Shown: positions 31,844 through 37,775, counted from the first letter of the stretch. The stretch is DNA of 45,610 bases from Patescibacteria group bacterium (GCA_038063195.1 JBBTVO010000012.1:1-45610), one strand, 5' to 3'. A program made the numbers and translations. Notes: generated from the sequence alone by a model not told the origin.

Positions 31844-31858
31844 ATAAATAGGGAATCA

Positions 31859-31960
31859 GTCGTGTTATATAAAAAAATTCGAACCTCTTTCTTGTTAACA
31901 TTGTAGTCGTCGCTTTCGCTCCTCCTACTATTTTATTTGCTCGGCCTTCGGCCTCGCTCT
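31859..31960 (+). repeat. 102-bp perfect inverted repeat, left copy (att arm)
   Basis: Exact reverse complement of 36024-36125. Confidence 0.97.
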
Positions 31961-32037
31961 TTTGTCTTTTTTGCGCGCGCGTTGTCCCGCTTCGGCGGGA
32001 CAGGAACGACGAGTAAGAACGAAACCGTAAGGATTTG

Positions 32038-32046
32038 ATTATACCA
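32038..32046 (-). promoter_or_regulatory. Outward-facing extended -10 promoter toward uppS-idi
   Basis: Minus strand TGgTATAAT; no consensus -35. Confidence 0.55.
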
Positions 32047-32077
32047 AATTCCGCATCAACCCACCCACCCGTTTAAT

Positions 32078-32482
32078 GTGGCGGCACCCCCGCTTTTGGG
32101 CGCTAGGGCTTCCTAGGGGAAGCCTCGCCAATATATTTCATTTTCTAGAAACGCTTTACAGTCTCTTCCTAGTCCCGATTGCGATCGGGACTTATCTTCT
32201 AAACAGATTTCGTATCGTTGCGCCGTTGCGGGGGTACTCCGCTTTTCGCCCCCGCCTTCTTTATTTTACCCCTTCCTGTTCATGCAGCTTTCGGTCGCTT
32301 CGGCGACCTTGTGGTAGCTCGGTTGGCTCACCCGCCAGTTTCTTAAGACGAAAGTTTTTTCGGCGGGTTCGCGTTGGTCGGGCACGCTCTTCGGTTGACA
32401 GAGAAATCGTGTAGACTATTTGTCGCGTGCCCTCCTTTTAGCAAAGACTCCATGATGGGGGCGGGGTCGGCGGAGCCGCCAC
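32078..32482 (+). ncRNA. Candidate ~405-nt multi-domain structured RNA (or ssDNA origin)
   Basis: GC-rich gap with terminal pairing GTGGCGGC/GCCGCCAC, many nested helices, cUUCGg and GAAA loops, G-U pairs favouring the plus strand. Confidence 0.55.
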
Positions 32483-32546
32483 CAAAACCAATCGGCCATT
32501 TTACACCATTTTGGCCGATTTTGTGCTATATTAAATTCACAGTAGT

Positions 32547-33383
32547 ATGACCGATACCAAAATTGCCATATTCAAGGGTAAAGAAATTAGAAAAACTATC
32601 CATCAAAATGAGTGGTGGTTTTCGATTGTGGATATTGTCGAGATTCTTACAGACACAGATAGGCCAAGAAAGTATTGGAATGACTTAAAAACAAAACTTA
32701 TCAAAGAGGGCTATGCTGAAGTGTCCGAAAAAATCGGACAGTTGAAGCTACCTGCTCCTGATGGAAAATTACGGGAAACAGATTGTACTAATACCGAGAC
32801 TGTGTTTAGGATTATCCAAACGATTCCATCTCCTAAAGCTGAACCATTTAAACGATGGTTAGCCAAAGTTGGCTATGAAAGAATACAAGAGATAGAAGAT
32901 CCTGAACTGGCAACCAAAAGAACACGGGCTTTATATAAAGCAAAAGGATATTCTGATGACTGGATTGAAAAACGGATGAGAGGGATTGCTATCCGTGAAG
33001 AATTAACTGATGAATGGCAAAAGAGAGGAGCAAAACTGCAGAAAGATTATGAAATTCTCACAGCCGAGATTTCCAAAGCAACTTTTGGTGTAACACCAAG
33101 CCAGTACAAAAAGTTAAAAGGGTTAAAACGGCAAAACCTCCGTGACCACATGGACGATTTTGAACTTATTTTTACTATGCTGGGAGAAAGGTCTACTACT
33201 GAAATTCACCGAAATGAAAACTCAAAAGGCATACTTAAATTAAAAAGCGATGCAAAAGCCGGAGGTGATATTGCCGGAGGAGCAAGAAAAAAACTTGAGA
33301 AACGTCTTGGTCGCTCAATTGTTTCTAAAGGAAATTACCTGTCTAAAAAGCGAAATACCAGACAAATTGCAACTATTAAATAG
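32547..33383 (+). CDS. Bro-N domain DNA-binding protein (phage antirepressor-like)
   Basis: EIR....EWWFSIVD....LT, RKYW..LK, DGKLRETD, RIIQ.IPSPKAEPFK.WLA.VG.ER..E..DPE. Confidence 0.9.
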   Translation: MTDTKIAIFKGKEIRKTIHQNEWWFSIVDIVEILTDTDRPRKYWNDLKTKLIKEGYAEVSEKIGQLKLPAPDGKLRETDCTNTETVFRIIQTIPSPKAEPFKRWLAKVGYERIQEIEDPELATKRTRALYKAKGYSDDWIEKRMRGIAIREELTDEWQKRGAKLQKDYEILTAEISKATFGVTPSQYKKLKGLKRQNLRDHMDDFELIFTMLGERSTTEIHRNENSKGILKLKSDAKAGGDIAGGARKKLEKRLGRSIVSKGNYLSKKRNTRQIATIK

Positions 33384-33439
33384 TATTACTAATTTAGATT
33401 ATTGAACACTTTGAGTAATAGTAGGTAATGTAGTTTTTA

Positions 33440-35732: not shown

Positions 35733-35848
35733 ATGAACTCACTAAGATATACGCAGTTACTTCAAGTTTATTCCTCTATATTATTGCCATTCGTATTTAC
35801 TACATTAACTATTTGATAACTGTCATATTTTGATATAAAAAATTCCAG

Positions 35849-35877
35849 TTGAAATTTACCACCTTACCTTGTATATT
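35849..35877 (+). promoter_or_regulatory. Promoter for pseudoknot leader and recombinase
   Basis: TTGAAA-17bp-TATATT; predicted start coincides with the 5' end of the stem at ~35882. Confidence 0.6.
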
Positions 35878-35881
35878 TTCA

Positions 35882-35968
35882 GTGGACTCAGTTTTACCAC
35901 AATCGCTTTTTTAATGGGCTATTCGGACAGTGCAAGCGATTGTTACTGAGTCCACCGGATAGCCCATT
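35882..35968 (+). ncRNA. Candidate pseudoknotted or switchable leader RNA
   Basis: Three long complementary pairs: 35882-92/35945-55, 35899-908/35934-43, 35913-26/35955-68. Confidence 0.65.
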
Positions 35969-36023
35969 TGAATTTTTGAAAGTTCTTTAAAATTTTTGCG
36001 TTTTTTCACGCCGACAGTTTTTT

Positions 36024-36125
36024 AGAGCGAGGCCGAAGGCCGAGCAAATAAAATAGTAGGAGGAGCGAAAGCGACGACTACAATGTTAACAAGAAAGAGG
36101 TTCGAATTTTTTTATATAACACGAC
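36024..36125 (-). repeat. 102-bp perfect inverted repeat, right copy
   Basis: Exact reverse complement of 31859-31960. Confidence 0.97.
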
Positions 36126-36224
36126 ACTTAGGGAGTCTCTGCAAAACTCCAAGGGCTGGGCTTGGGCTTGTCTCTCGGAAAAGACCGTTGCAAAGCCATT
36201 TTTGAAAGAAACGGAAAGCCGCCG
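36078..36224 (-). pseudogene. Inverted fragment of a homologous recombinase C-terminus spanning an intact attP-like junction
   Basis: Minus strand reads RRLSVSFKNGFATVFSERQAQAQPLEFCRDSLSV-VLYKKIRTSFLLTL*, colinear with the recombinase's RRLAVSFKQGFDVVQTESQ...NSWSV. Confidence 0.8.
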
Positions 36225-36266
36225 GTAAAAAGAAGAAAAACGCAAAAATTAGGGGAATGAATAACT

Positions 36267-37775
36267 ATGAAATATATAGCATACTGTAGAAAATCCAGAG
36301 AAGAAAAAGACAAACAGATATTATCTATTTCCGCTCAAATAGCGGAACTGAAAGAATATGCTAAAAGAGAGCATTTGGAAATCTCTGAATTTGTTGAAGA
36401 AGAAAAAACAGCTAAGACTCCGGGTCGAGGAAAATTTGCAGAAGTTTTAAGAAAAATAGAAAACGGACAAGCAAGGGGGATTATTGCGTGGCACCCGGAT
36501 CGTCTGGCAAGAAATTCAATTGACGGAGGGAAAATAATTTACCTTTTAGACACAGGAAAATTACTTGATTTAAAATTTCCTACTTCTTGGTTTGAAAATA
36601 CACCGCAGGGAAAATTCATGTTGAATATTGCTTTTGGCCAGAGTAAATATTACGTTGATAATTTATCGGAGAATGTTAAAAGAGGATTGAGACAAAAAAT
36701 AAGAAATGGTGTCTGGCCATGTAAAGCTACTTATGGCTACATCAATAATTTTCAAACCAGAGGAGTTGATGTGGACGAGAAAAAAGCCAAAGCAATAATA
36801 AAAGCCTACGAAATGTTTTCAGACGGTAGCAAAACCTTTATTGATATTTCCAATTTTCTTTACAAATCTGATTTAAAAAGAAAAAACGGAAAACCTTTGG
36901 CAATAGGACAAATCAGAAAATTGTTATCCGATAAATTTTATGTCGGAATTATGAGTTATAACGGTGAATATCATGAAGGAAAACATAAAACTTTTATTTC
37001 AAAAGAATTGTTTCAAAAAGTTCAAACGGAAATGCAAAAAAGAGATAAACATTATAAGAAATCAAACGGTTTTCCGTTTTTGGGAATTTTTAAGTGCAAA
37101 GAATGCGGAGCTGCAATAACTGCGGAAAAACATGCTAAGTTTTTTAAGGGAACAAATAGAACTGCTACGTATTATTATTACCGCTGCACTAAAAAATTAG
37201 GTCCTTGCTCGCAAAAAGCGATTACGGCTTTTGAAATGGAAAATCAAATTAAGGAAATGCTTAAAAAAGTATCGCTTCCAAAACTTTGGGTTAAGAATTG
37301 GCTAAGCATGTTAGAAAGAGATGAGATTTTAGATCAGGAGTTACAAAATCAAACAACCGAAAAATTGGAAAAAGAGTTGGAAGCGATAAATAAAAAACAA
37401 AATTTTCTCTTGGACAGTTTCTTAGACCAAGTTATAGATAGCGATGGTTATAAGAAAAAGAAGAATGAACTTTTTGAAACAAAAATAAAATTAGAGGAGG
37501 ATTTGGGAAAAATAAAGGATAACGGTTTGAGTCGGCTCGAACCTTTCCGGGAATTCATAAACGTCGCATCGCAATGCGGAAAAATCGCGCGGGCAAAAAA
37601 TACAAACGAAGAATTAGCATTCTTCGTAAAAACTGTCGGCTCGAACTTCTATTTAGATAATCGGCGGCTGGCTGTTTCTTTCAAACAGGGCTTTGACGTA
37701 GTCCAAACGGAGAGCCAAAGGCTCGGCGGATTTTCGAACGTTAGCCCTAATTCTTGGTCAGTCGGGATGCCGTGA
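36267..37775 (+). CDS. Large serine recombinase (integrase)
   Basis: Y.RKS catalytic Ser, Q..SI..Q, DRLARN, LSENVKRG, recombinase domain, C..CG...YYRC...C zinc ribbon, coiled coil; stop codon lies inside tRNA-Pro. Confidence 0.96.
   Translation: MKYIAYCRKSREEKDKQILSISAQIAELKEYAKREHLEISEFVEEEKTAKTPGRGKFAEVLRKIENGQARGIIAWHPDRLARNSIDGGKIIYLLDTGKLLDLKFPTSWFENTPQGKFMLNIAFGQSKYYVDNLSENVKRGLRQKIRNGVWPCKATYGYINNFQTRGVDVDEKKAKAIIKAYEMFSDGSKTFIDISNFLYKSDLKRKNGKPLAIGQIRKLLSDKFYVGIMSYNGEYHEGKHKTFISKELFQKVQTEMQKRDKHYKKSNGFPFLGIFKCKECGAAITAEKHAKFFKGTNRTATYYYYRCTKKLGPCSQKAITAFEMENQIKEMLKKVSLPKLWVKNWLSMLERDEILDQELQNQTTEKLEKELEAINKKQNFLLDSFLDQVIDSDGYKKKKNELFETKIKLEEDLGKIKDNGLSRLEPFREFINVASQCGKIARAKNTNEELAFFVKTVGSNFYLDNRRLAVSFKQGFDVVQTESQRLGGFSNVSPNSWSVGMP

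Follow-up and report, generated by a model that had tools for sequence, protein, structure and literature searches.

A 5.9-kb island of a Patescibacteria-like bacterium with a serine integrase predicted to exchange its C-terminus upon integration

The stretch of DNA analysed here, hereafter the window, is a whole contig of 45,610 nt (45.6 kb; GCA_038063195.1, JBBTVO010000012.1) from a Patescibacteria group bacterium, the assembly of which comprises 913 kb in 47 contigs. On the evidence as a whole, positions 31859-37764 probably represent a 5.9-kb integrative island of this small-genome, Patescibacteria-like groundwater bacterium, lying between a tRNA-Pro(GGG) gene and uppS. The phage-type attachment site (attP) of the island spans the last codons of its own integrase gene (int), and two integrase isoforms are predicted, one for the free and one for the integrated state. 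Taken together, the island, its att sites and the pair of isoforms can be accepted with high confidence. The family of islands to which it belongs is apparently undescribed, and the element of the window appears to be typical of it.

The integrase gene and its attachment sites

The integrase gene (36267-37775, plus strand) encodes, in the integrated state, a protein of 502 amino acids ending in ...NSWSVGMP*. Three Pfam domains were recognised, namely Resolvase (PF00239, 4.7e-23), Recombinase (PF07508, 4e-13) and Zn_ribbon_recom (PF13408, 7.2e-08). The residues R8, S10, D78, R79 and R82 are invariant in alignments of 24 and of 60 homologues, and the zinc-ribbon cysteines C277, C280, C307 and C314 are likewise invariant among the aligned homologues. 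A structural model was obtained with AlphaFold2 for P0007, a natural homologue (80% identical) that bears the C-terminal tail described below. The model (mean pLDDT 78.7) displayed the usual domains, with a coiled coil made of two long helices (339-386 and 392-423). Its best matches in Foldseek were the solved integrases of SPbeta type, LI, Bxb1 and phiC31 (best value 2.1e-18). In a search of the PDB by sequence, the sole match was 3g13, which covers the catalytic domain only (7.9e-07). With a catalytic domain, a recombinase domain and a four-cysteine zinc ribbon with coiled coil, the enzyme can be assigned, as judged from its sequence, to the large serine recombinases.

The last four-and-a-bit codons of the gene and its stop codon are the antisense of the 3' end of tRNA-Pro(GGG), an intact gene at 37761-37832 on the minus strand (ARAGORN; Rfam, 53.3 bits). 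The heptamer TCAGTCG is found at 37758-37764 and again at 31856-31862 (plus strand), where the start of uppS (31843, minus strand) lies 12 nt to its left. This heptamer is the core common to attL and attR, and the crossover would fall inside it. From the sequence and the comparison with related islands, attR (37730-37764, plus strand) consists of the P arm, formed by the last integrase codons, and the core at 37758-37764, while the 3' half of the tRNA gene provides the B' arm of the bacterial site attB. At the other end, the P' arm of attP corresponds to the left arm of a perfect inverted repeat (31859-31960, plus strand; 102 nt, 100% identity). When the integrase frame is read from 31862 onward, 14 further codons are obtained (31862-31903), followed by TAG at 31904-31906, both within this left arm. 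The same codons stand in a natural open reading frame (ORF; 36078-36245, minus strand), which translates as ...CRDSLSVVLYKKIRTSFLLTL*.

In the attP reconstructed from the integrated element, the P arm is thus made of the last integrase codons, and the P' arm (31863 onward) holds the in-frame 14-residue tail, its stop and a hairpin. Counted in the integrated gene of 502 codons, the crossover falls at codons 498-499, and the tail codons follow it. Upon integration the tail is replaced by three codons from the tRNA (GMP*), and it would be regained upon excision. By itself the heptamer is no more frequent than expected by chance: the window holds three matches, the expectation is 2.56, and three were reached in 45 of 100 shuffled sequences. 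Support for the crossover comes from a family of more than 70 related islands, described in the next section. A core of 4-7 nt is shared by attL and attR in nine related islands, ten when that of the window is included.

The empty site was searched for in relatives. It was found that tRNA-Pro(GGG) stands directly upstream of uppS, in the same orientation and without an island, in 6 of the 29 uppS loci compared. All six belong to the 17 loci of the window's own taxonomic family, and in 6/6 recA is located on the far side of the tRNA gene. One of the six is a genome of the same genus; there, RecA is 97.6% identical, the ORF beyond uppS is 76% identical, and the tRNA ends in ...CCCGAC, with a uppS-like ORF starting 30 nt later. 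Since recA, tRNA-Pro and uppS are adjacent in relatives, the 5.9 kb can be regarded as an insertion between tRNA-Pro and uppS. Island-free relatives with tRNA-Pro apart from uppS, named in the preliminary description below as a ground for refutation, are thus not what the comparison gave. The geometry of the empty site places the start of uppS (31160-31843, minus strand; Pfam Prenyltransf, 6.5e-68) 15-16 nt from where the tRNA end would lie. On the attR side, the chromosomal flank is recA (37916-39001, plus strand; Pfam RecA, 2.9e-130).

A preliminary description, made from the window before any comparison, had placed the end of the recombinase (...SWSVGMP*) within the 3' end of tRNA-Pro, had noted the two copies of TCAGTCG, and had predicted that joining them yields an in-frame tail with a stop at 31904-31906 and leaves an intact tRNA-Pro just upstream of uppS. 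All of this was recovered in the present analysis. Its proposal that the integration state changes the integrase's C-terminus, giving two isoforms, agrees with the att geometry, in which attP spans the last integrase codons.

Two features of the target gene may be mentioned. The tRNA-Pro gene does not encode CCA, its end (...CCCGAC) being followed by TGA on the tRNA strand. After integration, the 3' trailer of the tRNA is the antisense of the last integrase codons.

The internal attP copy and the family of islands

The left arm of the repeat recurs as a 100% identical inverted copy at 36024-36125 (minus strand). This 102-nt repeat starts at the GTCG of the heptamer and has only two copies in the genome. 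The right arm can be read as the P' arm and core of an internal, inverted copy of attP. It is continued at 36126-36245 (minus strand), in the place of the P arm, by the 3' end of an integrase gene that runs through the same GTCG into the repeat; the ORF at 36078-36245 mentioned above reads from this fragment into the tail. The integrase part of the fragment is 72% identical over 57 nt to the window's own integrase end (37662-37718). Compared with the C-terminus of P0039, another database integrase that is 66% identical to that of the window, it shows 78% identity over 41 amino acids, and the last 18 residues are identical. Since this part comes from another lineage, the element of the window is a mosaic. 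Relatives hold, at the equivalent position, a copy of their own integrase 3' end with 90-100% identity.

The preliminary description had cited the fragment as an independent witness of the crossover. As regards the junction this was borne out, for a second integrase lineage is fused at the same GTCG; as regards the peptide it was not, because the tail is encoded there by the same DNA, the 102-nt repeat. That the fragment includes an arm of a perfect inverted repeat, and is part of an internal attP copy found family-wide, had been overlooked. A separate mini-protein encoded by the internal attP copies was also considered. It was rejected, as 9 of 57 frames lack any ATG, GTG or TTG and few Shine-Dalgarno-like sequences are present.

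Close homologues of the integrase (45-61% identity) were detected in 8 of 40 related genomes. In nine of the ten genome loci an antisense tRNA is found at the 3' end of the integrase gene, the tenth gene ending at a contig end. The nine targets are the tRNAs for Pro, Gly, Val (two), Glu, Lys, Gln, Asn and Ile. In 9/9 of these loci the last 93-172 nt of the integrase gene, to 4-6 nt into the tRNA, are repeated in inverted orientation at 90-100% identity, and the copy ends 33-601 nt upstream of the integrase start. Where there was room on the contig, an inverted copy of the next 57-135 nt is found 0.9-7 kb to the left, at what is then the island's left border (7 of 8 loci). The same architecture was observed in three further genome-contig loci, 12 genome loci in all.

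A metagenome scan returned at least 581 relatives, of which the best 80 were taken and 77 analysed, three partial matches (L139, L152, L153) being dropped. The 77 loci comprise 60 complete integrases, 13 that run off the contig end and 4 that are truncated. Among the complete ones, 52/60 read into an antisense tRNA, with 24 anticodons represented. The repeat flanking the integrase gene was present in 47 of the 48 metagenome loci with at least 260 nt of left flank; its median length was 101 nt and its median identity 99% (36 of 56 at 98% or above). Both repeats were found in 29 loci, and the corresponding islands measure 2.4-11.1 kb. The common plan reads host flank, core, P' arm, cargo, inverted P' arm, core, inverted integrase 3' end, short spacer, integrase gene, core and tRNA. 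The integrated element accordingly carries attL, attR and a full internal attP in inverted orientation. The window follows this plan except for the other-lineage integrase part of its internal copy. With about 101 nt at about 99% identity, the internal attP copy appears too regular to be debris. No counterpart of an inverted second attP next to an integrase gene was encountered in the literature searched.

As the repeat structure occurs in a metagenome-assembled genome of 47 contigs, and repeats of about 100 nt are hard for short reads, an assembly artefact was considered. This is very improbable. Unitigs of two public runs cross the right arm into 36126 onward, and independent unitigs from runs of two studies cross both junctions (30500-31888 and 36096-38592). 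Moreover, many assemblies contribute to the loci with the same architecture, 12 of them from genomes and 47 from metagenomes.

The repeats themselves suggest another explanation, in which the structure would serve as an invertible switch. Recombination between the P' arms would flip the cargo, and recombination between the integrase 3' ends would flip the integrase gene, placing it downstream of the tRNA promoter with a full 3' end and without excision. A flip between repeats would indeed yield a complete integrase gene pointing the same way as the tRNA gene. The integrase gene is flanked in 47/48 loci, and the cargo in 29, by repeats about 100 nt long with about 99% identity. In addition, a public contig of 1144 nt (run X8, from another study) joins 36126-36452 via the repeat to 31961-32675, which corresponds to the cargo in the opposite orientation, and 3 of 120 database homologues are full-length with the tail. 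However, the depth of the flipped contig is 5.6 in a run where the uppS-side junction is uncovered, and it could be attributed to a de Bruijn path through the collapsed repeat. An integrase gene co-oriented with the tRNA was found in 0/60 complete metagenome loci and in 0/9 genome loci with a tRNA. In the window, the repeat flanking the integrase gene has degraded to 72%, which makes a flip of this gene unlikely here. An invertible switch is considered improbable.

Some loci of the family depart from the plan. In L116 (1662-1840), what comes after the integrase 3' end is not a tRNA but the P' arm of another element. In L120, L123 and L132 a degenerate tRNA-like sequence follows the integrase gene, and the real tRNA lies kilobases away. 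These four loci suggest tandem arrays, or the use of a tRNA-like P' arm as a pseudo-target. In L068, a fragment resembling a tRNA 3' half follows the junction (18461-18605), with a complete tRNA-Glu 72 nt further; the fragment may be the remnant of an earlier insertion. The genome of the window also encodes a second large serine recombinase (L004; contig C11, 17193-18221, minus strand), with 430 amino acids and 34% identity. It ends in ...SDRQLNLQ, exactly where the int-flanking repeat of the family begins. An antisense tRNA-Ser is located 247 nt downstream, and a flanking repeat was looked for at this locus and none was found.

The conserved C-terminal tail and its proposed role

When read in the integrase frame, the P' arms of the family encode (V/L/I)(Y/F)(E/K/Q)(K/Q)(I/V/C)RTxF, followed by a stop after 1-20 codons. 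The short consensus (V/L)(Y/F)(E/K)K(I/V)RTxF is carried family-wide on a variable linker. For a census, the internal attP copy of each element was read in the integrase frame (n=58); for the window, the two integrase ends of which are different, the tail is given by the natural frame of ORF 36078-36245. The strict pattern was found in 46/58 elements, compared with 1/58 and 0/58 in the other two frames. By eye, eight near-matches were added to the strict 46 and the tail was recognised in about 55/58, being missing in three elements (L099, L103 and L107). The third position of the Thr codon varies (ACT 25, ACG 12, ACC 8), as does that of the Phe codon (TTC 23, TTT 21), and the codon between them is free. 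For Arg, which is part of the anchor pattern, the codons are CGA 40, CGG 7, AGA 5 and CGT 1. Of the 7683 database homologues the 120 best were inspected. Three of these proteins have their full length and finish with the tail (contigs of 1.7-4.3 kb), and the majority of the remainder terminate in peptides antisense to a tRNA, at least 45 by a crude pattern that undercounts them. A protein search limited to residues 455-512 of P0007 returned only two proteins. The in-frame, IRT.F-type tail that the preliminary description had anticipated in homologues is thus a property of the family, and it is likely that the tail is a functional peptide.

AlphaFold2 models the tail of P0007 as a helix (pLDDT 83) that follows a linker at 69-73. 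A complex was predicted from integrase residues 1-482 and the window's natural 34-residue linker-plus-tail, each with an alignment of natural sequences. The score was 0.65, compared with 0.01 for the best of three controls; the mark applied is reached by 58 of 80 solved complexes and by 2 of 110 mismatched pairs, counts that are only rough here owing to the custom alignments. The prediction runs agreed in at least 95% of contacts, with a partner pLDDT of at least 61. On the tail side, the predicted contacts involve L18-T33 and include the conserved Y23, I26, R27 and F30. On the integrase side they involve W341, W345, D352, L424, P426, F427, F430, G475 and V479, which are situated where the two helices of the coiled coil, outgoing and returning, have their base, and on the last helix. 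The residues of this groove are conserved (W341, W345 and D352 each in 59/60, P426 in 58/60). The model thus supports binding of the tail at the base of the coiled coil. This base has been reported as the binding region of the directionality factors of other large serine integrases. In the SPbeta factor, the helix that is essential is lodged between zinc domain and inter-hinge segment (PMC11722253).

Based on this, a mechanism can be proposed. The integrase gene of the free element always reads into an intact attP, and the free element must for that reason make the full-length protein; consequently, the tail cannot be an inhibitor of integration. The full-length form would be the integration-proficient enzyme, in which the tail helix is predicted to pack by Y, I, R and F into the conserved hydrophobic groove at the coiled-coil base. 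In the simplest scheme, the tail would hold the hinge in the integrative state, and the loss of this hinge-docking helix would change the resident enzyme. It could free that enzyme for attL x attR recombination without a separate factor, or it could disable it. A switch of this kind is plausible, although it is doubtful that the tail governs directionality. Equally tentative is the wider picture that it would complete, that of a natural serine integrase needing no directionality factor, with a built-in helix on the factor's hinge site that recombination itself adds or removes, a spare inverted attP, and a repeat flip that re-creates the full gene. Such enzymes would form the first large group of serine integrases dedicated to tRNA 3' ends, and would carry defence or metabolic genes one at a time from one ultra-small bacterium to another.

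The preliminary description had also noted that no separate directionality factor is recognisable in the island. This was found to extend to the family. When 185 ORFs (minimum length 40 amino acids) from 40 islands were compared, no cargo family was common to more than five of the islands, so that a common element-encoded factor gene is not visible.

A different explanation starts from the DNA. The P' arms share a motif with the consensus of about TACGAAAAAATTCGAACYTC, the TTCGAAC core of which resembles the antisense T-loop of every target tRNA arm. TTCGAAC-like motifs are found 15-16 nt from the junction in the P' arm (32/36) and 11 nt from it in the tRNA arm (33/36). The shift between the two arms is +4 or +5 in 35 of the 36 elements in which a crude pattern found both motifs; in 23 elements the pattern failed. 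For serine integrases, a 5-bp register shift of the zinc ribbon domain motif between attP and attB, with the motif closer to the centre in attB, is described in part of one source (PMC3783163), and the shift observed here matches it at the level of sequence. On this explanation the tail would be a by-product of the DNA site. The P' arm would be kept, in its likeness to a tRNA T-arm, for integrase binding, the peptide would be dispensable, and direction would be set by an unrecognised factor encoded by a helper or by the host, as in ordinary serine integrases. In agreement with this, the conserved codons overlap the TTCGAAC-like motif found in every target tRNA arm, and directionality factors are described as diverse and hard to recognise in passages of two sources (PMC11722253; 10.1101/2024.08.21.608926). 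On the other hand, the frame is kept in 46/58 (about 55/58 by eye) despite a linker of variable length. The variation at the Thr and Phe codons is of wobble type, with a free codon between them. The conserved Y, I, R and F are the predicted contacts and face a groove that is 97-98% conserved. Finally, a shared factor gene could not be accommodated in islands of down to 2.4 kb that carry one cargo gene. A dispensable peptide is considered rather unlikely; the tail may be read as being under a double constraint, as coding sequence and as DNA site. That the conserved peptide overlaps the half-site bound by the integrase, which confounds the argument from conservation, had escaped the preliminary description.

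Several observations weigh against an integrase-driven cycle governed by the tail. Both isoforms are putative enzymes, known at the level of sequence, and the docking is a model confidence obtained with custom alignments and not a measurement. The A-rich codons before the Arg codon are conserved at third positions too, and since the P' half-site of the integrase falls on the tail codons, much of the conservation could be due to a constraint on the DNA. Neither the attP (circle) joint 37764->31863 nor the empty-site skip of 31863-37760 was among the 15 joints listed for four public runs over 30500-39000; these runs are stored as contigs, which drop rare variants, and such non-detection is no evidence of absence. 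Of the two junctions for which the preliminary description had recommended a search, the empty site has its counterpart in six relatives, where tRNA-Pro adjoins uppS, and neither was among the joints listed for the public contig runs. An integrase gene reading into the P' arm was found in 0/60 complete metagenome loci, and no circular contigs and no terminal direct or inverted repeats were seen among the metagenome and viral loci examined. In the viral collection, a single-protein query gave no match and an alignment query only five distant or partial matches. The diverged integrase part (72%) means that the window's internal copy may be decaying. The uppS gene next to attL is 42% identical to its same-genus orthologue, compared with 76-98% for the neighbouring genes (76% for the ORF at 30614-31156), and homologous exchange, not the integrase, may account for the acquisition of the region.

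These findings bear on the possibility of one-way, or 'suicidal', integration. In that case the tail would be needed for activity, the resident enzyme would be dead, and the island would spread with its flanks by transformation and homologous recombination. All metagenome loci with a recognisable target (52/52) are integrated and tRNA-tailed. In the likely source runs, contigs with the island and contigs with its flanks have similar depths (18.4-20.2 in run X3), and the uppS beside attL looks xenologous. There is also a precedent, the archaeal SSV-type integrases, as described in a passage of one source (PMC8371274). However, only about 15 codons are exchanged, and the catalytic and DNA-binding domains are all intact. 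Of the 64 loci with an ORF end, 60 have kept a conserved integrated gene of full length, which argues for continued selection after integration, and the near-perfect internal attP copies (median 99%) suggest that the elements are still active. One-way integration is considered to be on the unlikely side.

As to uppS itself, its best matches (52-59%) come from another family, in which uppS does not adjoin tRNA-Pro. On this sequence comparison, a xenologue that came in jointly with the island may have replaced the original gene.

Relation to known systems, cargo and further features

The integrase shares with those of phiC31, Bxb1, Listeria A118/LI and SPbeta (SprA) the order of catalytic domain, recombinase domain and zinc ribbon with inserted coiled coil. 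As in the large serine integrases of phages and integrative and conjugative elements, the att sites are short with few shared bases, and the motif of the zinc domain is displaced outward in attP by 4-5 bp relative to attB (PMC3783163, in part). Unlike in those systems, insertion here is at the very 3' end of tRNA genes of many kinds, the last codons of the integrase gene itself contain attP, with a conserved C-terminal helix encoded across the crossover, and an inverted second attP stands next to the integrase gene. The islands also differ in being small (2.4-11 kb), without phage or conjugation genes and without a shared directionality factor gene. According to the Islander paper (2014), no targeting of tRNA genes by integrases of the serine family was known (PMC4383910); the present family shows a systematic use of tRNA 3' ends by such enzymes. 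In the literature searched, neither a serine integrase with attP in its own gene nor tRNA targeting in Patescibacteria was found.

Integrases with the att site within their own gene are known as 'suicidal' integrases. They are of the tyrosine type, are described as exclusively archaeal and are discussed as a form of directionality control, at least in part of one source (PMC8371274). As in these SSV-type enzymes, the att site lies here inside the integrase gene and integration alters the gene. In contrast, the recombinase is a bacterial one with serine recombinase domains only, and just about 15 C-terminal codons are exchanged instead of the gene being split into two large pieces. In the integration-dependent immunity of BPs-like actinobacteriophages, attP lies in the 3' end of the repressor gene and integration removes a C-terminal degradation tag. 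The likeness consists in an attP in the 3' end of a gene and a protein C-terminus changed by integration; there, however, the repressor is cut, a degradation tag is involved and the integrases are of the tyrosine type, whereas here the recombinase itself is cut.

A further parallel is offered by engineered fusions of integrases with their recombination directionality factors, in which the factor is tethered to the integrase C-terminus by a 32-residue linker, as stated in part of one source (10.1101/2025.05.02.651858). A flexible linker of about 30 residues and a module at the zinc domain and coiled-coil base are common to both, as far as the passages cited go (10.1101/2025.05.02.651858, PMC11722253, PMC5737554). 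The fusions are man-made and contain a whole factor protein, whereas here a natural helix of about 12 residues would be gained or lost by recombination itself. As for the repeats, the yeast 2-micron plasmid is a replicating plasmid with the tyrosine recombinase FLP and two inverted repeats that hold its recombinase sites (FRT) and separate two segments. A circular form of the present islands would likewise have two inverted site-bearing repeats, with one segment carrying the recombinase gene. Unlike for 2-micron, a replication gene was not found in the cargo of 40 islands, nor a free circle among the loci examined.

The one-way action of serine integrases and its reversal are an active question, and the use of these enzymes in genome engineering is limited by the matched partner protein that excision needs. 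A recombination event that rewrites the C-terminus of the enzyme would offer a simple, natural pair of isoforms for testing, in which the rewritten part is predicted to lie at the directionality-factor site. Patescibacteria have few recognised mobile elements, and the family appears to be a main vehicle for small cargo among them, including restriction-modification systems, reverse transcriptases and candidate defence genes.

In the window, the cargo segment between the repeat arms comprises 4063 nt (31961-36023), and its content is not conserved among related islands. It encodes a Bro-N domain protein (32547-33383, plus strand; Pfam Bro-N, 2.7e-12) that corresponds to the PADLOC candidate defence family PDC-S13 (PDLC04920, 8.8e-117). 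A protein of 653 amino acids and unknown function (33440-35401, minus strand) has no Pfam and no PADLOC match at E<=0.01. The third gene (35511-35732, plus strand) encodes a 73-residue HTH_3 protein (Pfam, 1.9e-15) resembling the control (C) proteins of restriction-modification systems (PADLOC Control_protein, 4.8e-17). By these domain matches the cargo appears to be defence-like.

Two further elements lie in the left arm of the repeat, the motif TTCGAAC (31878-31884) and a GC hairpin (about 31938-31958) with a T-rich run behind it. This hairpin after the tail stop is known from sequence reading only, the predicted fold of 31895-32015 giving z = -1.46. Scans for promoter-like sites (16 compared with 17.1 expected) and terminator-like sites (6 compared with 5.9) were at chance level, and an Rfam scan of 30000-39000 detected tRNA only. 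Just inside the left arm, the segment 31961-32420 is GC-richer and hairpin-rich, with several stems bearing UUCG-type loops, and the summed contig depth over it is raised in some runs. An ORF at 32076-32414 within it has no Pfam match, and its 'family' adjoins the P' arm in 5 of 40 islands. The segment may be a conserved non-coding element rather than a gene.

A scan of 20 cargo proteins from nine other islands revealed restriction-modification genes, two reverse transcriptases, an HNH nuclease and methyltransferases, together with an ABC ATPase, an M23 peptidase and a GluRS-like gene. Among 40 islands, 15 have less than 1.6 kb of cargo, and several of them carry a single gene. In L066, the cargo (13160-15815) includes a class I tRNA synthetase gene of Glu/Gln type and a GlutR-like dehydrogenase, which indicates that the islands also move housekeeping-like genes.

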